This document shows positions 5,718 to 25,658 of a DNA stretch of 64,000 bases, piece after piece (the first letter of the stretch is position 1; each line of letters begins with the position of its first letter). A program made the position numbers and the translations under genes. The DNA lies in assembly GCA_903881545.1 (NCBI GenBank), contig CAIRTQ010000048.1:25914-89913 (forward strand), read 5' to 3'. Under the pieces are notes generated by a model. That model worked only from the letters and a program-made list of their open reading frames with translations. It searched no databases and was not told where the DNA came from. Origin of the DNA: an uncultured Elusimicrobia bacterium. Its GTDB lineage: Bacteria > Elusimicrobiota > Elusimicrobia > UBA1565 > UBA9628.

Positions 5718-6140
5718 ATGATGCGCGCGCGGAAGACGGGCAGGGTGCGGCGAGACGGGCCGCCGATTTTCCTCAATATAAGCAACCATCCGCTCTCGGA
5801 TTGGCCTCCGGAGCAGGTCCGGGCGGCTTTGCGGCTTGCGCCCGGGGCAAGGCTGGTGGACCTGCCTTTCCCGCAGGTGCCGCCGGAGGCGGGGAAAGCG
5901 GATGTCGCGGCGCTCATGGAGGCCGTTTTGCGCCGGGTCCCGGCTGGGACGACCCACGCGATGGTGATGGGAGAGTTCGCCTTGGCCTTCGCGCTTGTGG
6001 CGCGGCTTGAACGGTTCGGGGTGGAGTGCTTCGCTTCGACTACGACGCGCCGGCCGATGAAGGAGGCTTTCCGATTCGGTCGGTTCAGAAGATACTCCCC
6101 TTTGACGGCGGGGAAAAGAGAGGTCAGGGGTGACAAATGA
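5718..6140 (+). CDS. Small hypothetical protein immediately upstream of cas10 (possible type III accessory)
   Basis: 140 aa with a clean translation (ISNHPLSDWPPEQVRAAL...). Its stop overlaps the cas10 start (6137-6140). Confidence 0.35.
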   Translation: MMRARKTGRVRRDGPPIFLNISNHPLSDWPPEQVRAALRLAPGARLVDLPFPQVPPEAGKADVAALMEAVLRRVPAGTTHAMVMGEFALAFALVARLERFGVECFASTTTRRPMKEAFRFGRFRRYSPLTAGKREVRGDK

Positions 6141-7567
6141 TCCATTATTACTGCTTTGCGGCAAAGGGCATACAAGATTACATCCTACGAGGGGACAGAC
6201 TGCGCCTCATGGTCGGCGGCAGCGAGCTCATCGAGTCCCTGCCTAACAAATTTCTGGCGAGACTGCTCGATGGCCTCGGGCTCAAAGAGCCCTCGGACTA
6301 CGAGATACTCTCCCGCGTGGCCGGCGGAGCCAGGATCATCTTTAAGGAAGGCAAGGATGCCGAGCGGCTTGCGGAAGTCCTGCCCCTGGCGGTCAGCCTG
6401 TACGCTCCCGGGCTCGAGGTGGTGCAGGACTTGCGCCCACTCAACCGTGGGCTGGCTGATGTTATGGCCGATGCCGAGAAAGCCCTCTCCCGCCGGCGCA
6501 GTGTGCTTTTCGCCGCCAGTCCGTCCGCCGGACCGCTGGTCGAGCGCGCCCCGCGCACCGGGCTGCCGGTGGCGGAGGAGTTGCGTCATCGCGGACGCCG
6601 CGAGCCCGCGGACGCCGCCATGCTGGCCCGGGACGGAGCGGCGGACGCGGAGGCGCTCCGGCGCAAGATATACCCGGATAAGGCCATGCGCTTCGCGGAG
6701 AACATCGAGGAGATCGCGGGCGAGCGGGGTTGCGTCGCCGTCCTGCACGCCGACGGCAACGGTCTAGGGCGCGCGTTGAGCTCGCTCCTGAAGGAACTCG
6801 CCGGTCCGGACCAGACGACCGAGCGGTACCGGTCCTTCTGCGCCGCGGTCGATGCTTCGGCCCTCGCCGCTACGCGCGCGGCGCTCGACTGCGCCGATAC
6901 GGGCACGGCCCTGCTGGCGCGGCCGCTGGTGTGCGCGGGCGACGATGTGACGATGATCCTGCGCGGCAAGGACGCCCTTGCCGCTGCCAAAACCTTCCTG
7001 GAAACCTTCGAGAGCGAAAGTCTTGGTCGTCTGGGAAGAGGTCTGACGGCCGCGGCCGGCATAGCCTTCGTCCCGGCCGCTTTCCCGTTCGCTCAAGCCT
7101 ACAGGCTCTGCGAATCGCTCTGCGCCTTCGCCAAAGAAAAAAGCGGCAGGCGCGAATCCTCGCTCGCGTTCTGGAGGGTCACGTCCTCGGCCGCGGAGAG
7201 CTTCGGCGACATCCTCAAGAGCGAGCTCACGGCCCCGGATGGCAATATCCTGACCATGATGCCCTATGGGACAGGCGGCGACCTGCCTTCCGTCGCTGAT
7301 CTGCTCAAGCTGAAGGATGCTGTAGCTGCCATGCCCCGAGGCGGCCTGCGTGGCCTGCTCTCCGACATCTTCGTGGGCCGCGAGGTCGCCCAGCGGGCCT
7401 TTGAGCGCGTCGTGGATGTGGCTAAAGGCCGTGGCAAGGACCAGGACAAGCAGAGGGTAGAGGCCCTGCAGGGCGCGCTCAGCGCGCTGACCCAGGGCGG
7501 GCTCTGGAAAGGCCAGTCCACTCCCCTGCACGACGCCGTCGAACTGCTGGCAGCGGAGGCTTCATGA
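6137..7567 (+). CDS. cas10: Cas10-like cyclase subunit lacking an HD domain (type III-D-like Cas10)
   Basis: The N-terminus starts directly with the palm-domain signature (YCFAAKGIQDYIL...GGSEL). Palm-1 is AVLHADGNGLGRAL and Palm-2 is the GGDD-type LVCAGDDVTMILRG. No HD motif is present. Translationally coupled to the downstream RAMP genes. Confidence 0.65.
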   Translation: MIHYYCFAAKGIQDYILRGDRLRLMVGGSELIESLPNKFLARLLDGLGLKEPSDYEILSRVAGGARIIFKEGKDAERLAEVLPLAVSLYAPGLEVVQDLRPLNRGLADVMADAEKALSRRRSVLFAASPSAGPLVERAPRTGLPVAEELRHRGRREPADAAMLARDGAADAEALRRKIYPDKAMRFAENIEEIAGERGCVAVLHADGNGLGRALSSLLKELAGPDQTTERYRSFCAAVDASALAATRAALDCADTGTALLARPLVCAGDDVTMILRGKDALAAAKTFLETFESESLGRLGRGLTAAAGIAFVPAAFPFAQAYRLCESLCAFAKEKSGRRESSLAFWRVTSSAAESFGDILKSELTAPDGNILTMMPYGTGGDLPSVADLLKLKDAVAAMPRGGLRGLLSDIFVGREVAQRAFERVVDVAKGRGKDQDKQRVEALQGALSALTQGGLWKGQSTPLHDAVELLAAEAS

Positions 7568-8154
7568 ACATGGCAAGATTCTCGGTCAAGGTGGAGATAT
7601 CGTCCTATTGGCACGCCGGCTCCGGCGCCGGAAGGGGGGCGGATGTCGACGCCTTGGTGCTCAAGGGTCGCGACGGCATCCCTTACCTCCCCGGCCGGAC
7701 CCTGAAGGGCCTTCTGCGGGAGGGCATGGCGGTCTGCGAGGAGCTGGGCCACATCAGCCCGGGCCGTACCGATGCGCTTTTCGGCAAGCCGGCTCCGGAG
7801 GGGCGCGGCGACGGCTCGGTCCCAGGAGCCCTGATCGTCTCAGGCGCGGCCCTGCCCGAAGCCGAGCGCCTCTGGCTGGCCTCGAAAGAGGGGCACGGCG
7901 CCCGCGAGGCCCTCTTCGACCGGTTCGCTTCCACCCGCATCAGCGAGGACGGGACGGCCGAGGAGCATACCCTGCGCGCCATCGAGCTGTGCGTCCCGCT
8001 CACCCTGCACGCCGAAGTCGAGGGGCCTCCGGATGCGCAAGCCGACCTGGAGAAGGCCTGTTCTTTCGTCCGAGGGCTCGGCAGCCATCGCAGTCGTGGC
8101 CTCGGCCGCTGCCGCTTGAGCATAGAGGACATCAAGGAGCTTCCCCATGCTTGA
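7564..8154 (+). CDS. Small RAMP protein (Cas7/Cas5 group)
   Basis: YWHAGSGAGRG...IPYLPGRTLKGLLREG (RAMP core) and a C-terminal G-rich loop GLGSHRSRGLGRCRL. Start overlaps the cas10 stop. Confidence 0.55.
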   Translation: MNMARFSVKVEISSYWHAGSGAGRGADVDALVLKGRDGIPYLPGRTLKGLLREGMAVCEELGHISPGRTDALFGKPAPEGRGDGSVPGALIVSGAALPEAERLWLASKEGHGAREALFDRFASTRISEDGTAEEHTLRAIELCVPLTLHAEVEGPPDAQADLEKACSFVRGLGSHRSRGLGRCRLSIEDIKELPHA

Positions 8155-9580
8155 GAAAACCTTCAAGGTCGAACTTCTCTCAGGCGCGGTCGTCACCGCC
8201 GATTCGGCCACGGCGGGCGGACACCGCGGACTTGATTTTCTCCCCGGCTCCGTGTTCCTCGGCGCCGCCGCGGCCCAGGCCCAGCGGGAAGGAGTGTTTC
8301 AGGCCGGATTCTTCCTTTCCGGAGAGGTCCGGTTCCTTGATGCCCTGCCTGACGTCGGAAGCAATCCTTCCTTCCCTATACCCCTGTCCTTCCATCGCGG
8401 GAAGGGCGCGGACTGGGAGGGAAAAACTCCGTGCAATCTGGTCTATGAGGAGCCCCCTGAGGGTGTGCAGGTCCAGCAATGGCGCAGCGGCTACATGAGC
8501 GAGGACGGGCAGGTCCTGCAGGTCGTCCTCGACCACCGCATGAAGACCGCCGTAGACCGCGAGCAGAGGCGCAGCGCGGTGGGACAGCTCTTCGGCTATC
8601 AATCTATTCCCTCCGGCACGGTCCTGCGCATGCGCGTCCAGGTGGAAAAGGCGGAAAACCTCGCCCGGGTTTCAGGATGGTTCGACGGCCACACCATCAG
8701 GGTCGGGAGGTCGCGCTCCGCGGAATACGGGACGGCGCGGCTGACGGCCTTGTCCTCCGGTCCCGAATCTCAGCCTGGCAACGGCGGGGAGCGCCTCGTC
8801 TTGTATCTGGTCTCAGACCTCGCCCTGCTGCGCGATGGGATGCCCTCGCTGCTGCCCGAGGCCAAGGACTTCGGCATCCCCGAAAACGCTGGGTTCGACT
8901 CGGGGAACAGCTTCCTCAGGGCCAGGCGCTATTCCCCCTGGAATTCGTTCTTCAACTGCCGCATGGGTGAGAGGCTGGTGCTTTGCAGGGGCGGCGTCAT
9001 CGCTTTCCAGTTGCCCAAAGGCACTGCCTGCGACCGCGCCGCCCTGCAGAAGCGGCTCGCCTCGGGTGTAGGCCTGAATCGCGAAGAGGGCCTCGGGCAA
9101 CTACTCGTCGACCCGCCATGGCTCCTGAAACCTCCCGTGCTGACCCGTTATCAAGCGAAGGAGCCTCCGGCGCAGGGTATGCCGAAGACGCTGCTTACTG
9201 ATTACCTGAAACGCAAGCACCAGCGGCGCCAGACGTCTTTCGAAGCCTTCAAGACCGGATTGGAGTGGGCGCAGGAGTGGGGCAGGCTGGCTAAACGCGT
9301 GCGGGACGAGCACGGCAAGGCTCCGGGCAAGTCGCAATGGGCCGGCGTGCGCGAGATCGCGGTGCGTTGCCAGACGCAGCCCAACAGCTTGAGCCAGCAG
9401 ATCGAGCAGTTCTGCGGAGAGGCCCTGCGCAGGAAGCTTTGGCAGGCGAAAGCGGGCCGGGGCGGTTCCCTGCTCGACGCGGTGAAGGGAAAGGTGGGCC
9501 TCTCGCCGACGGGAAAGGAATGCCTCGCCCTCTACCACGCCGCCGTGGAGATGGGCCGGCTCATCGGGAGGGGTTCATGA
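8147..9580 (+). CDS. Cas5-group RAMP (Csx10/Cmr3/Csm4-like)
   Basis: N-terminal FKVELLSGAVVTADSATAGGHRGLDFLPGSVFLGAAAA is the typical Cas5-family pattern. Coupled in the operon (stop overlaps the next start). Confidence 0.5.
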   Translation: MLEKTFKVELLSGAVVTADSATAGGHRGLDFLPGSVFLGAAAAQAQREGVFQAGFFLSGEVRFLDALPDVGSNPSFPIPLSFHRGKGADWEGKTPCNLVYEEPPEGVQVQQWRSGYMSEDGQVLQVVLDHRMKTAVDREQRRSAVGQLFGYQSIPSGTVLRMRVQVEKAENLARVSGWFDGHTIRVGRSRSAEYGTARLTALSSGPESQPGNGGERLVLYLVSDLALLRDGMPSLLPEAKDFGIPENAGFDSGNSFLRARRYSPWNSFFNCRMGERLVLCRGGVIAFQLPKGTACDRAALQKRLASGVGLNREEGLGQLLVDPPWLLKPPVLTRYQAKEPPAQGMPKTLLTDYLKRKHQRRQTSFEAFKTGLEWAQEWGRLAKRVRDEHGKAPGKSQWAGVREIAVRCQTQPNSLSQQIEQFCGEALRRKLWQAKAGRGGSLLDAVKGKVGLSPTGKECLALYHAAVEMGRLIGRGS

Positions 9581-10959
9581 AAACGCATCGCTTCGTGGCG
9601 CGGGCGGTCGTCGAATTCACGACGCCGTTCATCGTGGGCGCTTCCCGGGGCGGCGATATCGCTGACGCGGTCTGCGTGACCGACGCCAACGGCCTGCCCG
9701 CCATCCCCGGTTCGAGTCTGGCCGGCGCTCTGCGCGCAGCCTTCCGGCGCGCGGCCGGGCAGGAGGCCGAGAAATCCATCTTCGGCTATCAGGAGAATGA
9801 CGACGGCCGGGGTTCGAGGCTGACCGTGTCGTGGGCCTGCATCCATGACTCGAAGGACGTGCCGGTCGAGGGCATCGCGGCCCCAGAGAGGCTCGCCGAC
9901 GCCGTGCTGGCCAAGGCCATGTGCCCGGCTGTTCGGGACCATGTGCGCATCAGCCACAAGGGTGCCTCGGACAGTGCGGAGCGCGGCAAATTCGACGAGC
10001 AGGCGGTCTGCGCCGGGCACCGGTTCAGCTTCGAGCTCGAGCTGGCCGGCGGCCCAGAGGACGCGACGGCCTGGAAGACGCTCCTTGGACTGCTGAGCGG
10101 AGGCTCCCTGCGGCTCGGCGGCAAGACCCGCCGCGGCTTCGGCGCATTCAAGCTGGTCAGCCTCAGCCTGCGCGACCGCGCTTTCGACCTGCGCAAGGAG
10201 GCCGACTTCTCGGCTTACCGGAAGCATCCCGTGTCCCTAAAAGAGAAGGACAGCCTGCCGTTGACCAAACTGGAGGGAGAAGCCGGCCGGGGCGGCATGC
10301 TGACCGTGCTCCTGGAGCTCACACCCCGGGGCTTCTGGATGTTCGGCGGAGGGCATGACCTCCCTGAAAGCAAGGGAGATGCGGATATGGCTCCGGTGCG
10401 GGATTGCCGCATAGCGTGGGAGGGCGGGAAAGGTGCGGTCGAGGAGGACCTGATTCTCATCCCGGCCGCCTCAATCAAAGGCGCCCTCTCCCACCGCGTC
10501 GCCTTCCATTACAACGCTCTGACCGGGAGGTTCTGCGACAAGGAAAGGCCGGAAGACATCTGCGGCGAGAACAACGGCGCGGTTAAGGCGCTGTTCGGCT
10601 TCGTCAAGGACCAGTCCGGCGGCAGGCGGGGGCGGGTCTTGATCGACGATATCCTGCTCAAGAAGACGGTGGCGGACCAGCTTGTCCACCATGTGGGCAT
10701 CGACCGCTACACCGGCGGGGCCCGTGACCAGGCGCTCTTCTGCGAGCGCCCCCTCTGGGGAGAGAAGCTGGGTATCGCGATCCATGTCAGCGAACCCGAG
10801 GACTTCAAGGACGACGCGGTCAAGAAGGCCTTCGCCCTGGCCTTGGATGACCTCGCCCAGGGACGCCTCCAGCTCGGGGCGGGCTCCGGGCGGGGGGAGG
10901 GCTATTTCGAGGGCAAGGTGGTCTGGCCGAAGGACGCCCGCTGGGGAGGGAAGATATGA
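9577..10959 (+). CDS. Tandem-duplicated Cas7 RAMP (Cas7x2 fusion)
   Basis: Two RAMP cores, each with its own G-rich loop: LPAIPGSSLAGALRAAF then GKTRRGFGAFKL, and ILIPAASIKGALSHRVAFHY then LGAGSGRGEGYFEG. The ATG at 9577 overlaps the upstream stop. Confidence 0.55.
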   Translation: MKTHRFVARAVVEFTTPFIVGASRGGDIADAVCVTDANGLPAIPGSSLAGALRAAFRRAAGQEAEKSIFGYQENDDGRGSRLTVSWACIHDSKDVPVEGIAAPERLADAVLAKAMCPAVRDHVRISHKGASDSAERGKFDEQAVCAGHRFSFELELAGGPEDATAWKTLLGLLSGGSLRLGGKTRRGFGAFKLVSLSLRDRAFDLRKEADFSAYRKHPVSLKEKDSLPLTKLEGEAGRGGMLTVLLELTPRGFWMFGGGHDLPESKGDADMAPVRDCRIAWEGGKGAVEEDLILIPAASIKGALSHRVAFHYNALTGRFCDKERPEDICGENNGAVKALFGFVKDQSGGRRGRVLIDDILLKKTVADQLVHHVGIDRYTGGARDQALFCERPLWGEKLGIAIHVSEPEDFKDDAVKKAFALALDDLAQGRLQLGAGSGRGEGYFEGKVVWPKDARWGGKI

Positions 10960-11423
10960 GTGTCGTCGAACTGCTGGGCAAAGTCGGTTTGAACAAGGAG
11001 GTCGCGGTCTCGATCGGTGGGCTTAAGCGCCACAGCGAGATCGTCAAGACCGCGCAGGATGTCCTGGTCAGGTTTGCCGGATTCGGGGGGGAGGGGTGGC
11101 TCTGTGCCACGGACTCCAAGGAGATCCGGCGCTTTTCACCTGCGGCGCCTCTGCCCGAGCTCAAGGACTGCTGGCCCTTGTGCGCCGAGGCGGTTAAAGG
11201 AGATGAGAGCCTGCATCTTGCGCGCGGCGCCGAGGGATGGATCTTGACCACGCTGCGCCGCGCACTGGGCGAAGATGGGGTTCTTGTGGCTTCGTCCCTC
11301 ATGGCCAAGGACGGCAAGGGCTGGCTCTGCTACGAGACAGCCTGGGAGTCGACCACTGCGGCCGGCCAACGGGAACTGCGGCCGGCGGTTTTCCGGTTTA
11401 CGGGATTTAAGGCGGAGAGGTAA
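10956..11423 (+). CDS. Small effector-operon protein (possibly Csx19 or small-subunit-like; unassigned)
   Basis: 155-aa ORF coupled to both neighbours. No recognisable motifs. Confidence 0.3.
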   Translation: MSVVELLGKVGLNKEVAVSIGGLKRHSEIVKTAQDVLVRFAGFGGEGWLCATDSKEIRRFSPAAPLPELKDCWPLCAEAVKGDESLHLARGAEGWILTTLRRALGEDGVLVASSLMAKDGKGWLCYETAWESTTAAGQRELRPAVFRFTGFKAER

Positions 11424-11426
11424 TCT

Positions 11427-13565
11427 ATGGCTAACGGGTTCAATATGCACGGCGGGCGGCAGGGCGGCGGCGGAAGGCCGTTGAATGGGCCGCAGGGACG
11501 CGGCGGTGGCAATACGCCGATTCCGTCGCCATATAATTTCGTGCCTCTCGCGGACAAGGTCTTCTTCCCGGATTGGGCCGGGCAGGTGTCGATGGACGCG
11601 CCTTTCTCAGACGGCATCAGCGGGCATTTTGACATCAAGGTGACGGCGAAGACACCGGTCTACATCCGCAGCGGCGGAGTGCATCCTGAAAAGCACGAAG
11701 ATCGGCTCAAGGATGCCGGCTACAAGTCCTTCTTTAGGACGCCGGACGGGAAGTACGCCATCCCGGGGACTTCCCTCAAGGGGATGCTCAGGGCGGTGGT
11801 CGAGATCGCATCGTTCGGCAAGATCATCGGGGGGAAATCGGCCCCGCGCGTGGACGACCACCGCTATGCGATGCGGGACCTGAACAACAACAGCTACCGC
11901 GAGCAGTTTACCGAGAACATGGACCCGAAGGTGAAGGCGGCGTGGCTGAGCGCCGATGAGAATGGGGATTGGCAGCTGGCCCTGTGTGATTTCGCCCGCC
12001 CGGAGCAGGAAGACTTGGAGAGGCATTTCGGGCTAGAGAAATTCTCACTGGGAAAGCGTGACCCATCGTCGCCGCAAGATAAATACCAGGCTATCTCGCG
12101 GGAAAACGGTTCTTTGGAGGCATTGAAGTTCGATCGCGGGCCTAGAGACGGATTGGGCAGGAATCCGGCCGTCAATCTCGGAAAGGGGAAGCTTGAGGGG
12201 ACGCTGGTGCTCACCGGACAGCCCATGCCGCGTGACCCGAACAAGACTAGGCGCAAGCACATGGAGTTCGTTTTCTATGGTAAAGAACGGGAATCTGTTC
12301 CCGTTTCGCCTCAACTGAAAGAAGAATTCCAGTTCGTCCATTCCGAGCTGGGTCAGAATCGGAAATTCAACCCGCAATGGACTTACTGGAAGAGCAAGTT
12401 GGATGCCGGCAAGCGCGTGCCGGTCTTCGTCCTTCTGGATGGGCAAGAGAAGATCTCGTCCATGGGGCTGGCCATGATGTACCGCCTTCCGTACAAGTAT
12501 TCCATCCATGAAATGATTGGTCACAGTTTGGAGGAACACAAGAATGCTGAGAGGCTAGACCTGGCTGAGCTGATCTTTGGCCGCGTGGAAGACAAGGACG
12601 CCCTGCGCGGCCGGGTTTGCGTCGAGACCCTGGCCGCCGAAGGCGACCCCAAACCGATGACCGAGGTCAAGACGGTGCTCAGCGGCCCCAAGCCGACCTA
12701 CTATCCCAACTACGTCGAGCAGGATGCCGGTCCTGATGGGGCGTTGCGGGGCGAATACAAGACCTTCATGCATGACGACGCCAAGATCCGCGGCTGGAAG
12801 CGGTACATTGTCAGAAAGGATTCGGAGGACATTCCGAGGTTTGACACGTCGCCCACTGAATCCGTCGCCACCGCGTTCAATCCCCTCCCGGCTGGGACCA
12901 GCTTCACTGGGCGCGTGCATATCCACAACATGAGGCCGCAGGAACTGGGCGCCTTGGTCTGGGCCATGACATGGGGCGGGGACAACAATCTGCGTCACAG
13001 CCTGGGCATGGGAAAGCCATATGGATTCGGCTCTGTGACCGTCGAAATCTCCGGCTATTCTTTGGCATGGTGCGATCCGCTCAAGAGGGATGACATCGAC
13101 ACGGAGGGCATGGGTAAGGAATTCGAGGCGCTCATGCAGAAGGCCGTGCCCTGCTGGCCGGATTCCCCGCAGATCAAGGCGCTCAAGGCCATGGCAAATC
13201 CCGAGACACATTGGCCGCAGGAACTCCGCTATCCGCGCCTTGATAATAATGGGAATAATGAATTCGCCACATTCAAGGGCGCCGGCCTTGCGCCCAAGCG
13301 GGTGCTCGTGCACCCGCCGGGCGGCTCTGTTCCTGCGCCGGCGGTTGCGCCCGGACAAAAGTTCTCTGCAGGTCAAAAGGTGCGCGTCAAGAGTGTGGAA
13401 GATCCAAGGGGGAAGGGGCGCCCTTGGTTTGAAGCCCCCGACGGGGACCAGGGCACCGTTGTCGGCGGCAACGCGCCGGTGGTTGCCATCGGCGAGTATT
13501 GCGAGCTGGAGATTGCATCCTGCAACTCGCCAAAAGGATATAACTTCCGCGTGCCGAGGCGTTAG
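11427..13565 (+). CDS. Large Cas7-family RAMP with a Gly/Arg-rich N-tail and a C-terminal extension
   Basis: PYNFVPL and YAIPGTSLKGMLRAVVEI (RAMP core), plus the G-rich loop GMGKPYGFGSVTVEI. 712 aa. The N-terminus carries GGRQGGGGRPLNGPQGRGGG and there is an extra C-terminal ~120-aa domain. Confidence 0.6.
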   Translation: MANGFNMHGGRQGGGGRPLNGPQGRGGGNTPIPSPYNFVPLADKVFFPDWAGQVSMDAPFSDGISGHFDIKVTAKTPVYIRSGGVHPEKHEDRLKDAGYKSFFRTPDGKYAIPGTSLKGMLRAVVEIASFGKIIGGKSAPRVDDHRYAMRDLNNNSYREQFTENMDPKVKAAWLSADENGDWQLALCDFARPEQEDLERHFGLEKFSLGKRDPSSPQDKYQAISRENGSLEALKFDRGPRDGLGRNPAVNLGKGKLEGTLVLTGQPMPRDPNKTRRKHMEFVFYGKERESVPVSPQLKEEFQFVHSELGQNRKFNPQWTYWKSKLDAGKRVPVFVLLDGQEKISSMGLAMMYRLPYKYSIHEMIGHSLEEHKNAERLDLAELIFGRVEDKDALRGRVCVETLAAEGDPKPMTEVKTVLSGPKPTYYPNYVEQDAGPDGALRGEYKTFMHDDAKIRGWKRYIVRKDSEDIPRFDTSPTESVATAFNPLPAGTSFTGRVHIHNMRPQELGALVWAMTWGGDNNLRHSLGMGKPYGFGSVTVEISGYSLAWCDPLKRDDIDTEGMGKEFEALMQKAVPCWPDSPQIKALKAMANPETHWPQELRYPRLDNNGNNEFATFKGAGLAPKRVLVHPPGGSVPAPAVAPGQKFSAGQKVRVKSVEDPRGKGRPWFEAPDGDQGTVVGGNAPVVAIGEYCELEIASCNSPKGYNFRVPRR

Positions 13566-13567
13566 GT

Positions 13568-14974
13568 ATGGGTTTCCCGCTGTCCGACGGGCAGGTCCTT
13601 AGGTGGCTCACGGGAAAGGGTGACGGTGCTTTTCATGGAGAGATGGCGCAGCGCCGTCTGTGCGCGTTCATCCTTTTCGACCCCCAGCTCGATCCCGACT
13701 TCCTGCGCGGACTCGAATGGGATTTCCGGGAAATGGATCGGCGTACCGGGCGGCATTTCCTCTTCTTCGCCGTCTGCCAGCCGCGACATGAGGAAGATCT
13801 TTCCTTGGCTCGGTATTTTTCAGGGCCCCTGCGGGCGCGTAGGGACCGCTTCTTGAACATGTCTAGCATCCGCACGCTGAACTTCGCGGCGGCGGCCGAG
13901 CTGGGCGTTCCCATGCAAGAACTGCCGTGCATTGTCGTGGCGGAGAGCCTCCTGGCGCGGCATTGCTGGGCTTGCGGGACCGATTCCGGACGACTCATGC
14001 AGCAGATCCTGGAGCTCGATGCGATGGCGGAACACCTGCATTCCGGAGGAGAGCGGGGCGGCTCCCTACAGCTAGTCCTCCGATTGGGCTGCGACGGAAG
14101 TCCTTGGATAAGGCTCCCAGAGGGCCCGCGGAACATTGCGGCCCGCCTTCTTCATTGCTGGAGACTGCTGGAGGATGATGACTATCAGGCGCGATGGCGG
14201 AGAAACCTGCAGTCGGACCTGGCGCAGGCGCGCCGGAACGATTCCCGGGATGCCTCTGATGAGGATGAGGGGATTTCTGAACGGATTTCGAACCTGGGCG
14301 CCCGCATGGCGGCCTGCGCCGCATCGGGCCGGGACTTGGCCGAAGCCCCCGAGTTCGCCGGCGCGGGGCAGCTCGAGCGCGGCGCCGCCATGAACCTGCG
14401 CGCCGCGCGGCTCTGTCTCGATGCCCTTTCCGACGCCGGGATGCAGGAGGATTTTTCAGCCGCGGCGATATGCGCTGGGAAGGCCTTCGAGATAGAGGCG
14501 CGGGCCTCCATGGCGCAATGGATCCGGTCCCGCCACGACATCGGCATGCCTGATTACTTCTGTCGCTGGAAGCCCGGGACGCCGGCCGTGGAGGTCCTGC
14601 CGCCCGCCGGCGGCCGGCACCGCGAGGAGCGTGTGGATTTCAACAAGGCCTTCAACCGCCGATGGTCCGCGCCCACCGTCAACCGCATCAGGGAGGCTTT
14701 TTTCCGCCGTGATGAGAACAATGATACGGCGAAGGAGCTGCGGGAATTCTCTCGGGATGCCCGCGCCGCCTGGAACGTGGGATTGCATGAATTGCTCCGT
14801 CTGCGCAACACCGGCGCCCATGAGCGCGAGTTGAGCCGCGAGGAAGGGGATCAAGCCCTGGCGGTCTCCGGCCGCCTCCTTTTGGATCCGGTTTTTGGCG
14901 GACTGCTGAGGATGAAGTCGAACCTGCGGGGACAGCAAGGCCGCATGAACCAGCCGATTGGCGGGGGGGATTGA
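13568..14974 (+). CDS. HEPN-motif protein (Csm6/Csx1-like C-terminal R-x4-H); N-terminal domain unassigned
   Basis: C-terminal WNVGLHELLRLRNTGAHERELS contains an R-N-xxx-H HEPN-type motif. Stop overlaps the start of the CARF gene. Confidence 0.45.
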   Translation: MGFPLSDGQVLRWLTGKGDGAFHGEMAQRRLCAFILFDPQLDPDFLRGLEWDFREMDRRTGRHFLFFAVCQPRHEEDLSLARYFSGPLRARRDRFLNMSSIRTLNFAAAAELGVPMQELPCIVVAESLLARHCWACGTDSGRLMQQILELDAMAEHLHSGGERGGSLQLVLRLGCDGSPWIRLPEGPRNIAARLLHCWRLLEDDDYQARWRRNLQSDLAQARRNDSRDASDEDEGISERISNLGARMAACAASGRDLAEAPEFAGAGQLERGAAMNLRAARLCLDALSDAGMQEDFSAAAICAGKAFEIEARASMAQWIRSRHDIGMPDYFCRWKPGTPAVEVLPPAGGRHREERVDFNKAFNRRWSAPTVNRIREAFFRRDENNDTAKELREFSRDARAAWNVGLHELLRLRNTGAHERELSREEGDQALAVSGRLLLDPVFGGLLRMKSNLRGQQGRMNQPIGGGD

Positions 14975-15900
14975 TGGGAGTCTGGCATCTCAGCGGCCTG
15001 GGCTTTAGCCCGGGGGCGGTGACCGCGCCGCTGACCAACGTCTATATCGCGGTCGAATGTGCGCGCCGCGGCGACCCTCTGGCCAAAGCTCTGCTGGCTT
15101 GTTCCGGCGAACCTGACAATGCGCAGGAGATCAAGGGCCTCCCGGAAGCTCTGATCTTCTTCACTTCCCCGGAGGTGGCGTCGGGCGCTCTGGCCCCTTC
15201 CAGCTACAGAGACCGCTGGTTCAATACGCAATTCCGGGTCAGCGTCCCGGCCACCATCCTGGCTTATCTTGAAAAGCTCTGCGCAAAGACCGGGCTCAGG
15301 ATGCCGAAGTACATATATGCGGTGAAGACGGATGTCTTCGATTTTCAGGCCTGCTTCAAGCTCGTCTATCTCACCATGCGGGCTTTGACCGACAAGGAAC
15401 TCTGGGTCAACATGACCCCGGGGACCAACTCGTGCAATGCGGCGCTCCTGGCCTGCGCCGGCCTTCAGACGGACGTCGCCCGCTTGTATTATTCAACGAG
15501 CAATCCTCCCGATTTGGCGCATCCGGATGCGGCCCCGCCGAACTGGGGGGACCTGTCGGCCTATCGCCCGCCGCCGACCCCGTGGCACGAATTCCCATTC
15601 TTCAGCATGGGTATGAGCCAGCTGTTTCAAGAGCTACAGAAACGCTTCGCCGCCGGCCAGAGTCTGCATCACAATGAACTGAGTCCCATCATGGAGGGTT
15701 GCGGTTTCGGCGAAAGGATGCTTCCGAAGCTCGCTTCCAGGGATGGGCTTCTTCATTCCGAACCGGGGGACCGATTCTCGCGGGGCCCGGCGTTCTCCGT
15801 GTGGGAGGGCCTCATGACGCTTCCTGATGGCGCCCCCACGGACTTTAGCGCCTGGCGGCGATGGATTGGAGACCGTGCTATCATCTTGCGCCATGAATAG
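14971..15900 (+). CDS. CARF-domain protein (Csx1/Csm6-like sensor, 309 aa)
   Basis: WHLSGLGFSPGAVTAPL matches the CARF N-terminal GxSPG motif. WVNMTPGTNSCNAALLACAG matches the CARF TxGT(K/N)-type ligand-binding motif. A possible Rx5H lies at the extreme C-terminus (RAIILRH). Confidence 0.6.
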   Translation: MMGVWHLSGLGFSPGAVTAPLTNVYIAVECARRGDPLAKALLACSGEPDNAQEIKGLPEALIFFTSPEVASGALAPSSYRDRWFNTQFRVSVPATILAYLEKLCAKTGLRMPKYIYAVKTDVFDFQACFKLVYLTMRALTDKELWVNMTPGTNSCNAALLACAGLQTDVARLYYSTSNPPDLAHPDAAPPNWGDLSAYRPPPTPWHEFPFFSMGMSQLFQELQKRFAAGQSLHHNELSPIMEGCGFGERMLPKLASRDGLLHSEPGDRFSRGPAFSVWEGLMTLPDGAPTDFSAWRRWIGDRAIILRHE

Positions 15901-16681
15901 GATGGGCGGTCGAACGAACGCGCCCGTCATCCCGGCAGCCGAGCGGCAGGTCTTCCTGCGCGCCCTCGAAAACGGGGCCGTGAGCGACTCGTCCGGCGAA
16001 CTGATCCACGGCGCCTTCTTCGCGGCGCTCGCAAGCCGCGACGCCGGGCTGGCAAGGGAGGTCCACGACGGGCCGGTCAAGCCGTTCACCCTGAGCGTGC
16101 TCCAGGCTCCCGAGGGCAGGCCGGCGGAGCGCATCCTCGCTGGCGGCGAATATTGGTTTCGCTTCACGGCCATGGGCCCGAGGGCGGCGTCCTTGTGCCT
16201 GGCCTGGGAGGGGGGGCAGGCCTTGCGCATCGGCCGGATTCGGTTTGCCATAGGCGAGGTCCGGCATCCGGCGGAGGAAGCCGAGGTCCGGGCATCCGGC
16301 GCCTTTGAGATAGAATTCCTTTCCCCGGCCGCGTTCAAATGCGGTGACAGCCACCTTCCCCTGCCCGAGCCGGGCCTGCTCTGGGATGGGCTCGACCGCA
16401 AATGGGCCCTGGCCTCGGGGTCGCCTGGGGAAATGATTTCGGCTGACGCATGGCGGCGGGTGGTGCGCCTGCGGGAGCATGAGCTGCGCACCGTGGCTTT
16501 CCGCCTGCGCGATTGCATCATCCCGGGCTTCGTGGGGCGGGCGGTCTTCGAGACCGACAAGCGGGCGCCCGCGGACCTGCGCTCACGCGCCGCGCGCCTG
16601 GCCGCCTTCGCCCGTATCGCGGGCGTCGGGGTCAAGACCACGGTCGGCATGGGCCAGGTCCGTACGCGCTTGCTTCCGTAG
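15893..16681 (+). CDS. cas6: Cas6 endoribonuclease
   Basis: C-terminal G-rich loop ARIAGVGVKTTVGMGQV. Sits between the effector genes and cas1. The ATG overlaps the upstream stop. Confidence 0.7.
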   Translation: MNRMGGRTNAPVIPAAERQVFLRALENGAVSDSSGELIHGAFFAALASRDAGLAREVHDGPVKPFTLSVLQAPEGRPAERILAGGEYWFRFTAMGPRAASLCLAWEGGQALRIGRIRFAIGEVRHPAEEAEVRASGAFEIEFLSPAAFKCGDSHLPLPEPGLLWDGLDRKWALASGSPGEMISADAWRRVVRLREHELRTVAFRLRDCIIPGFVGRAVFETDKRAPADLRSRAARLAAFARIAGVGVKTTVGMGQVRTRLLP

Positions 16682-16727
16682 ACCCCATTCCGCACTGCAA
16701 CCTCGCGCAGTCCGTGCGCGTTATTTC

Positions 16728-17699
16728 ATGGGGACCATGCCAGCTCTCTACATCCTGGACCAGGGCGCCGCGTTGGGCAAGGAATCCGAGCGCATCGTGG
16801 TGCGCAAGGAGGGCGCCGTCATCGCCGAATTCCCACTGGCCAGGATAGAGAAGGTCCTGCTCTTCGGGGCCGTGCAGGTTTCCACCCAGGCCATCGGCGC
16901 TCTCCTGGAGGCGCGCATCCCCACGGCGTTCTGCAATTACGGCGGCCGCCTGCGCGGCGTGCTGACGCCGGTGGGGGGCAAGAACGTGTTCCTGCGCGTC
17001 TGCCAGGTCCGAAGGCTGGATGATGCGCCCTTCCGGCTGGCCGCGGCCAGGGAGAGCGTCCTGGCGAAGCTCCGCGGCCAGCGCTCCTTCCTGGCGCGGT
17101 CCGAGCGCAACGAGCCCGGCGGCCGCGAGGCGGCCCTGGCCGAGCTCGCGCGGCTGCTCGCGGACGCTGCCGGGGCCGGGGGGATCGGGGTCCTGCGGGG
17201 CGTGGAGGGGCGCGCCGCGGCGGTCTATTTCCGGCAGTTCCCGGGCATGCTGAAATCGGATTGGGGGTTCCCCGGCCGCCGCCGCAGGCCGCCCACGGAT
17301 CCGGCCAACTGCCTTCTTTCGTTCGGTTACGCGGTGCTGACCAACGACGCGGCCTCCCTGCTGGCGGGGTATGCGCTGGACCCGTGCATCGGTTATCTGC
17401 ACGAACTGGACTACGGCAGGCCCTCGCTGGCCCTGGACCTCATCGAGGAGTTCCGCGTCCCGGTGGTGGACCGTACCGTGGTGCGGTTCCTGAACCTGAA
17501 CATGGCGGGAAGGGATGATTTTGAGGTTTTTGAGGATGGGCTTCGCATGACGGATGCCTGTCGGAAGGCCTTTCTGTCCGAATACGAGCGCACTGTGCGG
17601 GATGGCAGACTGCGTGATGCGATGCGCAGACAGATCGAGGCGCTCTGCCAGGCGATATTGGAAGGCAGAGGCTATCATGCCCATCGCTGGGAAGCATGA
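16728..17699 (+). CDS. cas1: Cas1 integrase
   Basis: LYILDQGAALGKESERIVVR...IEKVLLFGAVQVSTQAIGALLEARIPTAF is the typical Cas1 N-terminus. Precedes cas2 and the array. Start chosen at the internal Met of the 16479 ORF. Confidence 0.85.
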   Translation: MGTMPALYILDQGAALGKESERIVVRKEGAVIAEFPLARIEKVLLFGAVQVSTQAIGALLEARIPTAFCNYGGRLRGVLTPVGGKNVFLRVCQVRRLDDAPFRLAAARESVLAKLRGQRSFLARSERNEPGGREAALAELARLLADAAGAGGIGVLRGVEGRAAAVYFRQFPGMLKSDWGFPGRRRRPPTDPANCLLSFGYAVLTNDAASLLAGYALDPCIGYLHELDYGRPSLALDLIEEFRVPVVDRTVVRFLNLNMAGRDDFEVFEDGLRMTDACRKAFLSEYERTVRDGRLRDAMRRQIEALCQAILEGRGYHAHRWEA

Positions 17700-17976
17700 G
17701 CTTCTGGTATTGGTGGTCTATGACATCAGGTCGCCGAAGCGGCTGGCGCGGATGGGCAGGCGCATGAAGGATTTCGGGGTGCGCGTGCAGAACAGCGTTT
17801 TCGAGTGCCGTCTGGCGGTCTCCGAGTATCCGAGGCTGAAGGATGCGGCGCTGAAGATCGTGGACCCGCGGGTGGATTCCCTGCGGTTATACCGGATCTG
17901 CGCGGCCTGCGAAGAGAAGGTGGATTTCCTGGGCGCGGAGGTGCCGGGATTGCCTGACGATGTGCTTGTCCTGTGA
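17677..17976 (+). CDS. cas2: Cas2
   Basis: MPIAGKHELLVLVVYDIRSPKRLARMGRRMKDFGVRVQNSVFEC is the canonical Cas2 fold signature. Overlaps the end of cas1. Confidence 0.8.
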   Translation: MPIAGKHELLVLVVYDIRSPKRLARMGRRMKDFGVRVQNSVFECRLAVSEYPRLKDAALKIVDPRVDSLRLYRICAACEEKVDFLGAEVPGLPDDVLVL

Positions 17977-18200: not shown

Positions 18201-19336
18201 GTCGGAAAGAAGTGACTCCCTGATAAGGGATTGAGACCCGTAACTTCTCTCTCTGTTGCTTCGTCATAGTTTCTCGTCGGAAAGAAGTGACTCCCTGATA
18301 AGGGATTGAGACGGACTTGGCCTGCGCTATGAGACTGCGGGCGAGGGTAGTCGGAAAGAAGTGACTCCCTGATAAGGGATTGAGACCCTCGAACTCGGCG
18401 TCCGATAGGGGGACGATGCCGGTCGGAAAGAAGTGACTCCCTGATAAGGGATTGAGACCGAGTGATAGACATCGACTCGCGCTTGGCGGCTATGTCGGAA
18501 AGAAGTGACTCCCTGATAAGGGATTGAGACCTGGCTTCGGCTCGATATTTAGCGCTCGGTAATGTTGTCGGAAAGAAGTGACTCCCTGATAAGGGATTGA
18601 GACTATCGCCGTGGCGCGCATCTGCGCCAAGGTGGCCGTGTCGGAAAGAAGTGACTCCCTGATAAGGGATTGAGACTTCGAAGAAGCCGCCTGCTTCACC
18701 ACATATCTGACGCGTCGGAAAGAAGTGACTCCCTGATAAGGGATTGAGACGACCCCGTCCGGATCATTACTTGTGTAGCAGTTCATTTGTCGGAAAGAAG
18801 TGACTCCCTGATAAGGGATTGAGACCACGCCGCGCTCGCCGCGCTCCACGCCGCGCTCTCCGCGTCGGAAAGAAGTGACTCCCTGATAAGGGATTGAGAC
18901 TTATTGCCATATAGAAGACCACAGCCGCTTTGATGGTCGGAAAGAAGTGACTCCCTGATAAGGGATTGAGACACCGTCTCGGGCCAGGCCGGATGCTTTC
19001 TCACAAAGGTCGGAAAGAAGTGACTCCCTGATAAGGGATTGAGACCTGGAAAGAGTGTGTTGTCCCCTTGCTATGTCCAAGTCGGAAAGAAGTGACTCCC
19101 TGATAAGGGATTGAGACAAGGCAGAGCCTTCACCGATCCGGACGACGTCCGTCAGGTCGGAAAGAAGTGACTCCCTGATAAGGGATTGAGACGAAGGAGG
19201 CGCGTCTGATTGGGCGTGAACGTGTAGTCGGAAAGAAGTGACTCCCTGATAAGGGATTGAGACTCGCCGCCGAGCCACACGCCGCCGCGCCACTCGCCGG
19301 TCGGAAAGAAGTGACTCCCTTATGCTGTACAGGCCT
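18201..19336 (+). CRISPR. CRISPR array: 15 full copies plus 1 degenerate terminal copy of a 37-bp repeat GTCGGAAAGAAGTGACTCCCTGATAAGGGATTGAGAC, with 34-38-bp spacers
   Basis: Exact repeat copies start at ~18201, 18276, 18350, 18422, 18494, 18567, 18640, 18714, 18789, 18864, 18936, 19009, 19081, 19156 and 19227. A truncated, diverged copy starts at ~19300. The repeat has an internal hairpin (TCCC TGATAA GGGA) and a 3' ATTGAGAC handle-like end. Leader side and orientation are consistent with cas1-cas2 upstream. Confidence 0.95.
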
Positions 19337-19355
19337 AGCCCGGTCAGTTCCAGAG

Positions 19356-21140
19356 ATGATGGTTAAGCGCGGATGCCCCGTGCGCCAGTCAAGGAGGAGT
19401 GCAATCATAGCCGCCAAAACAGTTCGGGCGCTTCTGCATAAAGCCGCCGCATCCGACCCCGCCCTGCGCGCCGCCCTGCGCGATCGCCGCCTCGACCGCG
19501 CCCTCGGCGAGATCCCGGCCGAGCCATTCATCCTCTCCACCAAGACCGACCCGAACCAACTGCAGTACTTCTTCGCCGGCAAAAAGGCCACCTTCGTCCA
19601 CCGTTTCCCGCATAACGTCTCGGTAGGCGCCCCCGGCCAGGCCGTCCTCGCGCTATCGGCGCTCAGGCTCAAGCCCGGCATGTCCGTGCTCATGGTCGGC
19701 GCCCGGGGCGGCTTCTGGGAGGCGCTCATCATGAGCATCTTGGGGCCCCGCGGGCGTTTGGTGGTCGTCGAGGCCGACGGCGAGGCCGCGCGGGCCACCA
19801 TCCGCAACCTGCGGCGGACCCACCGCGACGGCGGCGTGCTTGTAGTCCCGGACGATTACCCCCTGCGGGGCTTCCCCGTGGGCGCGCCCTACCACCGCAT
19901 CCTGATTTCGGCCGCCATCGAAGCCCCGCCCCGGCCGCTGATCGCGCAGTTGCGGCCGGAGGGCGAACTGGTCGCGGCGATAGAGCGCGAGGGAGGGCAG
20001 ACCCTCTGGCGCTATGCCGCCGGTGAGAAGGCGCAGCTACTGGGTCCGATCCAATTGCCTTCCTTCCTGAAGAGGGACGAATGCGGCCTGTGGCGGCTGC
20101 GCATCGGCCAGAGCGGCAAGGAAGGCGGGCTTCGCCGGCTCGATTTCACCCTGGAGACCCCGGGCGAGACCGTTGCGGTGCGGGCCCGGGCGCAGTTGTC
20201 ACGTTCGTGCGCCGAAGAATGGAGACGCGACCTTGCGGCGCTCCTGCGCGTCGATGCCCCGTCCGCGCGCGGGCAGGATCTCAGACAGCGGCGGATCGAG
20301 AAGATCGGCCGCCACATCTGGACGCATCTCCTGCCCCGGGAGATCCGGGAGAAGCTCTCCCGCGCGGAGACGGCGCGCGGCTTCATCATGCTCTGCTCGG
20401 ATGAGGACGAGGTGCCCTGGGAGCTGACCATGGTCCCGGGGACCGGCGGGGCGCGCGACAAGCACCTCTGGGAGCGCAGCATCGTGTCCCGGCGGCCCCA
20501 AGCCTCGGCCCTGCGGCTGTCAGGAGGCTACGCCTGGCGGCCGCTGAGCGCCCTGCTGGCCTTCACCCCGGGCCGCGGTTTCGGCGGGGAGGCGGAGACG
20601 CGCGAGGTCCGCCGCATACTCGAAGGCGCGGGCGTCGGCGTCCGCGTGGCGCGCGGCCGCCGCGAGCTCGACGTGCTGCTCGCCGAAAGACGGCGCTTCG
20701 ACATATTCCATTTCGCGGGCCACGCCGAGATCGATCCGGCCTGCGCCCGGCATAGCCGGCTGTGGCTCGACGAGCCCATCACGGCCGGGGAACTGCGCAA
20801 CCGCATGGAAGGGGTGGGTGGGGCGAGCCTGGCGTTCCTCAACGCCTGCCGCTGTGCGGGCGGGAAGGGGAAGGACGGCTTCGGCAGCCTGCTCAGCGTG
20901 TTCCTCGACTGGTCCGAGACCGCGGTCGGGCCGCTCTGGGAGGTCTGCCCGTTCGGGGCCCGCAAGGTCGCCAGGACCTTCTATAAGCGGCTCGTCGAGG
21001 GGCACTACATGGGCCACGCCCTGCGCGCCGCCAAAGGCAAGACCCGCAACGTCTACGGCGACCGGGACCTGACCGCGAGCTGGGCCGCTTATGTCCTCTA
21101 CGGCGACCCCGCCCGGGCCCTCTTCCCCCTGCCCGACTGA
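19356..21140 (+). CDS. Fusion of a PCMT-like (protein-L-isoaspartate O-methyltransferase fold) domain and a CHAT-family protease
   Basis: The N-terminal half aligns in pattern to the PCMT family (APYHRILISAAIEAPPRPLIAQLRPEGELVAAIE...LGPIQLPSF), but the SAM glycine motif is degenerate (LMVGARGGFW). The C-terminal CHAT dyad is FHFAGHAEID (His) and AFLNACRCAGG (Cys). Start at the internal Met just past the array. Confidence 0.6.
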   Translation: MMVKRGCPVRQSRRSAIIAAKTVRALLHKAAASDPALRAALRDRRLDRALGEIPAEPFILSTKTDPNQLQYFFAGKKATFVHRFPHNVSVGAPGQAVLALSALRLKPGMSVLMVGARGGFWEALIMSILGPRGRLVVVEADGEAARATIRNLRRTHRDGGVLVVPDDYPLRGFPVGAPYHRILISAAIEAPPRPLIAQLRPEGELVAAIEREGGQTLWRYAAGEKAQLLGPIQLPSFLKRDECGLWRLRIGQSGKEGGLRRLDFTLETPGETVAVRARAQLSRSCAEEWRRDLAALLRVDAPSARGQDLRQRRIEKIGRHIWTHLLPREIREKLSRAETARGFIMLCSDEDEVPWELTMVPGTGGARDKHLWERSIVSRRPQASALRLSGGYAWRPLSALLAFTPGRGFGGEAETREVRRILEGAGVGVRVARGRRELDVLLAERRRFDIFHFAGHAEIDPACARHSRLWLDEPITAGELRNRMEGVGGASLAFLNACRCAGGKGKDGFGSLLSVFLDWSETAVGPLWEVCPFGARKVARTFYKRLVEGHYMGHALRAAKGKTRNVYGDRDLTASWAAYVLYGDPARALFPLPD

Positions 21141-21142
21141 GC

Positions 21143-22114
21143 TTAGGCGGAGGTTCCCAGCAGGCCTGCGGTCAGCGTCGCGGCGTCGAGCAGCCTGCGG
21201 CCGCGGACGATGCGCATCGCGCAGAGTTCGCGGGTCGCATTCTTGAGCAGAAGCAGGATATCCGCGGGCGGGCGGTGCATGCGGCGCGCGATCTGCGCCG
21301 GGGAAAGGCCATCGACCAGGAGCATCTTCAGCGCGGCGCTTTCGGCCGGGTGGTCCTCGGCGAGGGCCTCAAGGTGCTCCTCCTTCAGGATGAAGTGGCC
21401 GCGGACGTAGTCGAGCGCGGCCTTGGCCGTGGCGAGGTCGTAGCCCATCTCGCGCAGAAGGGCCGCTGAGCCTCGGGTCACCAGCAGTTCGGTGTCGTCG
21501 CGGTCCATGATCGGGCCCGCTTCATCGTGCGGCACGCGCAGGACGTGCGTCAGGAACAGCGCGAGCTGGTAGTTTTCGTTCTTAAGCGCGTAGAGCGCAT
21601 CCATCACCTCGCGCCTGAGCCGTGCGACCCAGAGAGCTTCGAGCGGCGGCAGGTCCTCGGCGGAAGTGACCTCCGCCAGCTCCCGCTGCGCTCCTTCCTC
21701 GGTTGATATCTTGCCGTTGAGCGAACGGGCCCTGACGATGATTTTTCCATCGTCCTCGTCGGATCCGGACTCCCTTTGGGGCCGTTCTTCGCTGCTGTAG
21801 ACGCGGTACTGGGTCCGGGTGAAATTGTACGCGACCGTATCGGACCAGGAGAGGAAATTGCCTTTCTCCGGGTTCCATTTCTCGTTACGGATCTGGAACA
21901 GGACGTATGCCTCGGCGGCCTTGATGTGGAGCTTCAGATCCAGGAAGAACGCCTTTCGGTCGCTCGGATGGAAGATCCTGAGCATGGCTTTCTTGACGGA
22001 GGCTTCCAGGCCCGGGCGCATGAGAGCCTTCAGGGATTCCTCGCCCCGGCGCTTCCTGTTCGAATAGCTCCGGGCGAGAGTGTTCGCCCGTTCGTGGTCC
22101 CTAGGCATGGTCAT
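21143..22114 (-). CDS. Atypical sigma-70-family factor
   Basis: Region-2-like FLSWSDTVAYNFTRTQYR and region-4-like HTH LSPAQIARRMHRPPADILLLLKNATREL, with a ~100-aa acidic insert between them. Tail-to-tail with the CHAT gene. Confidence 0.45.
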   Translation of the reverse strand: MTMPRDHERANTLARSYSNRKRRGEESLKALMRPGLEASVKKAMLRIFHPSDRKAFFLDLKLHIKAAEAYVLFQIRNEKWNPEKGNFLSWSDTVAYNFTRTQYRVYSSEERPQRESGSDEDDGKIIVRARSLNGKISTEEGAQRELAEVTSAEDLPPLEALWVARLRREVMDALYALKNENYQLALFLTHVLRVPHDEAGPIMDRDDTELLVTRGSAALLREMGYDLATAKAALDYVRGHFILKEEHLEALAEDHPAESAALKMLLVDGLSPAQIARRMHRPPADILLLLKNATRELCAMRIVRGRRLLDAATLTAGLLGTSA

Positions 22115-22246
22115 CCTCCTGAACGATAGGACATTTTACCAAGTTGCAGTCTGCCGCGTTCTGCGGATTTGCAGGGTGCGCGGAGGCTGGTAAAATGCTT
22201 TCATCGGGACAGGATGCCGGCCCAACTGACATAAAGGAGCAGACCC

Positions 22247-24709: not shown

Positions 24710-24822
24710 CGGGATTGGCGCCTGCAGCCTGCCGTCCGGCCTGCCCGTTCATATGGGCAGGCAGGCATGGAGGTCCCCCGAAATCTTGGAGAGTGCCTAG
24801 GGCAAGAACTGGATGGCTGGCC

Positions 24823-25641: not shown

Positions 25642-25658
25642 AATCCCTCCTCAAGGTT

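Follow-up and report, generated by a model that had tools for sequence, protein, structure and literature searches.

Within a 64,000-nucleotide (nt) stretch of contig CAIRTQ010000048.1 from an uncultured Elusimicrobia bacterium (GenBank assembly GCA_903881545.1, positions 25,914 to 89,913; hereafter the window), two overlapping open reading frames (ORFs) stand between the effector genes and cas6 of a type III-D(v)-like CRISPR-Cas operon. We find that these two genes—ORF1, which encodes a predicted ribonuclease (RNase) with a C-terminal HEPN domain, and ORF2, which encodes a predicted CARF-winged-helix protein—are probably two independent ancillary modules placed side by side. The initial annotation, made from the sequence alone, had read the same pair as a possible split or atypical Csm6/Csx1 whose sensor and RNase parts lie on different polypeptides, or else as a HEPN protein carrying a new sensor domain. 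The features of the two genes on which our analysis draws are as follows, with lengths in amino acids (aa):

13568-14974, + strand: ORF1, 468 aa, domain order thioredoxin-like, helical linker, HEPN; predicted RNase
13568-14047, + strand: N-terminal alpha/beta domain of ORF1, about residues 1-160, of thioredoxin-like topology without CxxC
14048-14437, + strand: helical linker of ORF1, about residues 161-290, poorly conserved with few conserved columns; helices at 163-289 in the AlphaFold2 (AF2) model
14438-14944, + strand: C-terminal HEPN domain of ORF1, about residues 291-459; helical over 297-459 in the AF2 model, apart from an inserted beta-hairpin near 340-365
14489-14509, + strand: E308-x-E310-x3-S314, located in helix 1 of the C-terminal domain and invariant in the 52-sequence alignment (family consensus FExExNLS)
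14804-14821, + strand: HEPN Rx4-6H motif R413-N414-T-G-A-H418, within LRLRNTGAHE
14974-15900, + strand: ORF2, 308 aa, with a CARF3-clade CARF domain and a C-terminal winged helix
14974-15573, + strand: CARF domain of ORF2, about residues 1-200, with conserved MGVWHLSGLGxSPGAVT and NMxxGTNxxNAALL
15601-15897, + strand: winged helix of ORF2, about residues 210-308, including a non-conserved R301-x5-H307

The motif near the C-terminus of ORF1 is present as first described, and the AF2 model gives it a helical setting. In this arginine-rich protein, R-x4-6-H alone occurs at chance level (3 occurrences seen vs. 4.0 expected from shuffles), but the stricter RNxxxH would be expected by chance only 0.057 times. 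R413, N414 and H418 are invariant in 52/52 aligned family members, and RNxxxH falls within the C-terminal 160 residues of 138 of the 151 sequences retrieved. ORF1 keeps every position that is invariant across the 52-sequence alignment (G61, P120, E308, E310, S314, R320, P328, N359, R413, N414 and H418), with the family consensus reading ...ICLAKxFExEINLSxVHWxR...IDFN...W.PPGxGQSE...W..IRxxRNxAAH...

Only an exhaustive phmmer search revealed the family: at E<=1e-3 it returned 267 cluster representatives, of which 103 reach E<=1e-10, so that the family comprises no fewer than 267 clusters at 50% identity; members are mostly full length (450-510 aa) and 21-27% identical. Word-indexed searching with ORF1 itself returned only ORF1 and one 88%-identical relative—two sequences of this sub-lineage in 5.8 billion clusters—and the same search with the family alignment gained one known member and nothing more. 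The 88%-identical relative is likewise an intact full-length ORF, with its motif kept as RNNGAH. Searches of Pfam, NCBIfam, PADLOC and PDB sequences with ORF1 gave no match and PHROGs a single marginal, short one, the family members scanned have no significant Pfam or PADLOC match, and the only name returned by cluster lookups for the family is "hypothetical protein". Relatives were found neither in viral contigs nor, by tblastn, in plasmids.

The HEPN assignment of the C-terminal domain draws first on the invariance of RNxxxH and of E308, E310, S314 and R320 in 52/52 members. No match to a curated HEPN family reaches curated thresholds in Pfam, NCBIfam or PADLOC, and PDB sequences searched with a profile of the full family, or of the C-terminal domain alone, yield only coiled-coil or designed-protein noise. 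Sub-threshold Pfam matches to HEPN_Swt1, DUF4145, Abi_2 and HepT (best E about 0.07-0.1) overlie the motif segment, weak PADLOC matches of family members point to HEPN-containing models, and structural matches include LsoA, RnlA and HepT. This evidence places the C-terminal domain among HEPN domains, with the motif-bearing segment inside the predicted HEPN fold and not, as the initial annotation had allowed for, outside one.

The N-terminal domain of ORF1 is of a different kind. The AF2 model, built from the 52-sequence family alignment, is confident overall (predicted local distance difference test, pLDDT, 82.6; predicted template modelling score, pTM, 0.85), with lower pLDDT in the linker, and gives the N-terminal domain the element order beta-alpha-beta-alpha-beta-beta-alpha. 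Its structural matches are to thioredoxin (Trx) and to b'-type domains of protein disulfide isomerase (PDI) (ERp27 7.7, Trx 6.8), and the best Foldseek matches of ORF1 against PDB are likewise of thioredoxin/PDI type, none of them significant. CxxC is absent after strand 1, where ORF1 has FDPQLD and the family consensus is HDPxxH. Judging by the order of secondary-structure elements, the HDP motif (FDP in ORF1) would occupy the expected place of the thioredoxin redox site, and the invariant P120 before strand 3 that of the thioredoxin cis-proline. In this model the domain looks like a thioredoxin-like fold. CARF and SAVED are both missing from its structural matches, hhalign comparison of the ORF1 family with the ORF2 (CARF3-clade) family gives a probability of 0.2%, and we rejected CARF, SAVED or TIR identities, with which topology and structural matches disagree. 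The early observation that the first part of the HEPN protein shows no CARF motifs thus agrees with a domain that is neither CARF nor SAVED; the related suggestion of a new sensor domain comes nearer to the data, in that a non-CARF, non-SAVED domain precedes the HEPN domain, but this domain is family-wide and not peculiar to the present CRISPR locus.

To see where this family resides, we drew on 12 informative loci. A narrower alignment gave 7 genome and 5 short metagenome loci; two relatives, P0013 and P0051, lie on contigs under 2 kb with no usable context. In 7/12 loci the gene lies inside or beside defence genes: type I restriction-modification (R-M), MmeI/Eco57I-type enzymes (two), BREX, DISARM (two) and WYL. 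The surroundings, by locus, are:

L009: between hsdS/AAA_15 and hsdR
L010: behind PglX-PglZ-BrxL (BREX)
L012: behind a DrmA-like helicase and DrmB (DISARM)
L025: behind helicase/MZB, SNF2 and an MmeI-like methyltransferase, ahead of an Mrr-type nuclease
L007 and L011: adjoining Eco57I/MmeI-type enzymes
L005: behind a WYL regulator
L026: adjoining giant YjiT_N proteins
L008, L013, L014 and L023/24: among housekeeping genes

None of the 12 loci has a CARF or cas neighbour, and the window locus adds type III CRISPR-Cas to the defence contexts of the family. The ORF1 family is recurrently sited in or next to multi-gene defence operons, and is a large, unnamed, widespread family that is not CRISPR-specific. 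In the type I R-M operon of L009 (8517-11401, from an Acidobacteria metagenome-assembled genome), the ORF1-family gene stands right behind an AAA_15/AAA_21 ATPase, a position and an ATPase/HEPN pairing that recall the anticodon nuclease PrrC, but on two genes.

ORF2 has a distribution of its own. Its ATG shares one base with the TGA stop of ORF1 (14972-14974; TGATG), and we place its start at this ATG (14974) rather than at the listed TTG (14971) because 5/5 homologues open with MGVWH. The overlapping downstream CARF ORF described initially therefore stands, with a 1-nt overlap, at a length of 308 instead of 309 aa. PADLOC matches it over its full length to CARF3--CARF (8.9e-53), the model name on which the label "CARF3" rests here ("CARF3" in PMC7515739 is a footnote-style label and does not denote the clade), and CCTyper matches it to its "Csx1" profile (3.3e-28); the latter match stems from the CARF part and the full-length family, not from a HEPN domain. 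The AF2 model gives a Rossmann-like CARF fold, followed by a well-predicted C-terminal domain (pLDDT about 80-90) of helix-helix-helix-strand-strand topology, and the structural matches are to CARF and winged helix, with no HEPN. R301-x5-H307, described at first as marginal, is conserved in none of the five homologues, nor are the other Rx4-6H matches of ORF2; with no HEPN structural match and no conserved motif, we rejected the reading of this C-terminus as a degenerate HEPN. By its predicted structure, ORF2 is a CARF-winged-helix protein of Csa3 architecture.

Only five homologues of ORF2 were found, at 34-43% identity. In 3/3 distinct loci (L004 duplicates L003) they belong to III-A or III-B systems with csx3 adjoining, and none of these three loci has an ORF1-like gene. 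The csx3 neighbours are:

L001, 9552-9797: csx3
L002, 9711-10001: csx3
L003, 5979-6224: csx3

In the window, ORF2 has no csx3 neighbour, and ORF1 occupies that place upstream.

The operon that houses the pair is type III-D(v)-like and tightly packed, a single + strand unit in the order RtcB-like, 140-aa ORF, cas10, effector genes, ORF1, ORF2, cas6, cas1, cas2 and repeat array. Its remaining members are:

4722-5708, + strand: RtcB-family RNA ligase gene at the head of the operon, 328 aa, divergent (Pfam RtcB 1.2e-19)
5718-6140, + strand: 140-aa ORF with no assigned function, its 3' end sharing 4 nt with cas10
6137-7567, + strand: minimal Cas10, 476 aa, no HD domain (PADLOC Cas10 9e-62, Cas10d 5e-61)
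7564-8154, + strand: Cas7, with Pfam RAMP matches among the effector genes
8147-9580, + strand: Cas5/Csx10 (PADLOC Cas5_IIId 1e-60)
ORF listed from 9337, to 10959, + strand: double Cas7, with Pfam RAMP matches among the effector genes
10956-11423, + strand: 155-aa ORF that may be Cas11
11427-13565, + strand: TIGR03986 RAMP (NCBIfam TIGR03986 4e-92)
in-frame ATG at 15893, to 16681, + strand: cas6 (Pfam and NCBIfam Cas6)
16479-17699, + strand: cas1 (Pfam and NCBIfam Cas1)
17554-17976, + strand: cas2 (PADLOC Cas2)
18201-19336, + strand: CRISPR array of 16 x 37-nt repeats, following cas2

All junctions checked across the operon measure -8 to +3 nt, and because such tight junctions are found operon-wide, the stop/start overlap of ORF1 and ORF2 is uninformative as a sign of a complex. 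RtcB seals 2',3'-cyclic phosphate and 5'-OH ends, the type of ends made by HEPN RNases. The ligase encoded by the first gene has both its GGGNHF metal-site motif and its HGTGR guanylyl-histidine motif intact, and its presence is consistent with RNA cleavage leaving 2',3'-cyclic phosphate ends as part of the biology of the locus. One and the same type III operon thus has an RNA-repair gene at its head and a HEPN gene further in.

The palm motifs of Cas10 are HADGNGLG and AGDD, and in an alignment with the type III-Dv Cas10 from Synechocystis (8s9t_C; 4e-19) this AGDD lies opposite GGDD at the palm-2 site. The Synechocystis III-Dv enzyme produces cyclic oligoadenylate (cOA), which activates Csx1 (PMC11026444), and type III-D2 complexes produce S-adenosylmethionine-AMP (SAM-AMP) for CorA (PMC13294483). 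Because no CorA was seen in the window and a CARF protein is present, cOA appears the likelier messenger here on sequence grounds; SAM-AMP signalling as in III-D2 is disfavoured by the lack of CorA and by the closeness of this Cas10 to the cOA-producing III-Dv enzyme.

With domain identities, motif invariance and gene contexts taken directly from tool results, we infer RNase activity, its trigger, cOA binding and regulatory targets along the following lines. ORF1 would be a metal-independent endoribonuclease acting through R413/N414/H418, probably together with E308/E310/S314, and by analogy with known HEPN enzymes its active form would be a dimer whose cleavage produces 2',3'-cyclic phosphate ends. 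Autoinhibition by the N-terminal and linker domains may last until an infection cue, whereupon an abortive-infection-type growth arrest would follow, and the gene may have been captured by the CRISPR operon as its relatives were by other defence operons (type I and IIG R-M, BREX, DISARM and WYL-regulated cassettes). Given its type III setting and the csx3 genes beside its homologues, ORF2 would bind cOA made by the HD-less Cas10 with its AGDD palm; the ligand is probably cyclic tetra-adenylate (cA4), on which Csx3, the ring nuclease that accompanies ORF2 relatives, acts. Ligand-bound ORF2 would then alter DNA binding and transcription, plausibly of cas6-cas1-cas2 or of the whole operon.

Several observations weigh against treating the two genes as independent. 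Besides ORF2, no cOA-activated effector of a recognised type, be it nuclease, protease or pore, accompanies the apparently competent cyclase in the window, which leaves ORF1 as the sole RNase candidate of the operon. The pair is kept in the sole close relative (88% identity), where a 308-aa gene follows the ORF1-like gene. ORF1 diverges from its family at H37F, has lost G372 and has lost PPGxGQSE of the hairpin insert, changes that could mean adaptation to a new partner. Finally, the contexts sampled are few, with 12 loci for the ORF1 family and three distinct ones for the ORF2 family, and the AF2 model of ORF2, built from 6 sequences, is only moderately confident (pLDDT 67.7).

Under an alternative that we consider unlikely, these observations would reflect a two-component, cOA-gated RNase—the split Csm6/Csx1 of the initial annotation—in which the HEPN protein forms a complex with the CARF-winged-helix protein, which holds it inactive as an antitoxin would or else nucleates HEPN dimerisation, and binding of cOA to the CARF dimer then releases or activates the RNase; type III signalling would have acquired a free-standing defence-island toxin in this lineage. 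Such coupling would account for the adjacency of ORF1 and ORF2 with their 1-nt overlap, for the conservation of the pair in the 88%-identical relative, and for the departures of ORF1 from otherwise conserved positions of the N-terminal domain and insert, and it would supply the CARF sensor and the plausibly active cyclase with the effector that the operon otherwise lacks in recognisable form, with an RtcB-family ligase, sealer of HEPN-type ends, at its head. Co-occurrence beyond this lineage is, however, absent: CARF (or cas) genes occur in 0/12 loci of the ORF1 family, and ORF1-like genes in 0/3 distinct loci of the ORF2 family. ORF2 already possesses a typical output domain in its winged helix, and tight overlaps are usual throughout the operon. 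To our knowledge, a CARF sensor working in trans on a separate HEPN protein has no precedent. On these grounds the split arrangement first proposed is not borne out. A related scenario, in which a free-standing toxin with thioredoxin-like and HEPN domains was recruited as a trans-acting RNase output gated by the CARF-winged-helix protein, with the RtcB-family ligase reversing the RNA damage, we regard as quite unlikely.

The losses at near-invariant family positions noted above (H37F, G372 and, within the insert, GQSE) might also be signs of decay, such that ORF1 would be a catalytically silent or decaying passenger without a role here and ORF2 the only functional CRISPR ancillary protein. That the family is otherwise unrelated to CRISPR, and that the sub-lineage numbers only two sequences among all clusters searched, would fit this idea. 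We nonetheless hold it to be very unlikely, as ORF1 is intact, full length and retains every family-invariant residue, its AF2 model is confident, its 88%-identical relative is also intact with the motif kept, and it sits without intergenic space inside the operon. Most improbable is that ORF2 is an RtcR-like damage sensor instead of a cOA sensor, its CARF domain reading 2',3'-cyclic phosphate RNA ends made by ORF1 and controlling the RtcB-led operon: the intact ligase as first operon gene would suit such a role, as would the example of RtcR, a regulator of rtcBA that has a CARF domain and reacts to damaged tRNAs (PMC7790460), but ORF2 relatives lie in ordinary III-A/III-B loci by the cOA ring nuclease Csx3 with no RtcB, ORF2 matches CARF3 profiles while PADLOC gives no RtcR-type match, and ORF2 is without the sigma54 AAA+ module of RtcR.

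Comparison with known systems accords each module its own set of likenesses. Counting ORF1 and ORF2 together, the likeness to Csm6/Csx1 lies in the presence of both CARF and HEPN domains, the latter with a conserved Rx4H, and in a type III setting whose Cas10 has cyclase motifs. Csm6 and Csx1 are, however, single polypeptides, whereas here CARF and HEPN lie on separate proteins of unrelated families, each found elsewhere without the other; the HEPN protein has a thioredoxin-like N-terminal domain and the CARF protein ends in a winged helix. The architecture of ORF2 is shared with Csa3, a cA4-binding transcription factor composed of a CARF domain and a winged helix-turn-helix (PMC8699464, PMC8844856, PMC9704534), from which ORF2 differs in being about 100 aa longer, in its CARF3-clade profile, and in occurring in type III rather than type I-A loci. 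No Csa3 model in Pfam, NCBIfam or PADLOC matches ORF2, the only sign of one being a weak Csa3_N flag on an Odinarchaeum homologue.

ORF1, for its part, shares a C-terminal helical HEPN domain, RNxxxH and defence-island siting with stand-alone HEPN Abi/toxin RNases (AbiD/Abi_2, Swt1-like HEPN, DUF4145, HepT, LsoA/RnlA and PrrC). In the EcoprrI locus prrC stands between hsdS and hsdR, and the ORF1-family gene of L009 has the same hsdS-hsdR position. ORF1 matches none of these families significantly in sequence, its family has no consistent MNT, antitoxin or ATPase partner, and a thioredoxin-like N-terminal domain with a helical linker is not the architecture known to us for them. A further likeness, of habit and domains and not of sequence, is to single-gene RNase defences embedded in multi-gene defence systems, such as HEC-07 and HEC-08 (bioRxiv 10.1101/2024.01.29.577857). 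HEC-07 combines a thioredoxin-like domain without CxxC with a RelE-like RNase and an AdoMetDC-like N-terminal domain (bioRxiv 10.1101/2024.01.29.577857), and so resembles ORF1, with its apparently thioredoxin-like, CxxC-less domain and predicted RNase domain, but has a RelE-like nuclease in place of HEPN. HEC-08 has Zn-ribbons and an N-terminal HEPN domain (DUF3644) whose Rx4-6H histidine is required for defence (bioRxiv 10.1101/2024.01.29.577857); it shares HEPN with ORF1, in which the domain is C-terminal.

Elsewhere in the window, an AbiEii nucleotidyltransferase toxin (1285-2352, - strand; Pfam 4.8e-42) lies downstream of a DUF6088 protein (2304-2930, - strand; 5.5e-47) that may be its AbiEi-type partner, and this pair suggests that the CRISPR locus lies within a defence island. 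Right after the array lies a 627-aa ORF (19257-21140, + strand) with a PCMT-like methyltransferase domain (residues 119-255) and a CHAT caspase-like protease domain (349-617); its listed TTG start runs into the last repeats, and the true start is probably further downstream. Proteases of the CHAT kind are known to partner type III systems, as Csx29 does in III-E. Beyond it, ORFs with weak matches to extracytoplasmic-function (ECF) sigma-70-like proteins (21143-22114 and 27776-29167, - strand) stand on either side of large unknown ORFs, and the C-terminus of one of these, of 706 aa (25659-27779, - strand), weakly matches a Csx29 TPR-CHAT model (2e-11, far below cutoff). With a protease beside a sigma-factor-like protein, this region (21143-29167, - strand) is reminiscent of the III-E Craspase/Csx30/RpoE module.

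A split Csm6 is probably not what the two genes form, which makes the finding as first stated less striking; were ORF1 and ORF2 coupled after all, they would form the first trans-acting CARF/HEPN pair known to us. For ORF2, the consequence is one of labelling: CARF3-clade proteins tagged "Csx1" by automatic pipelines appear to be CARF-winged-helix proteins, an identity from which the outputs predicted for one set of type III systems are transcriptional and not nucleolytic. For ORF1, an unnamed HEPN family with a distinctive thioredoxin-like/linker/HEPN architecture emerges that nests in R-M, BREX, DISARM and, here, type III CRISPR systems. These traits make the family a good candidate for a new abortive-infection defence encoded by a single gene, and one on which to test "guilt by embedding".

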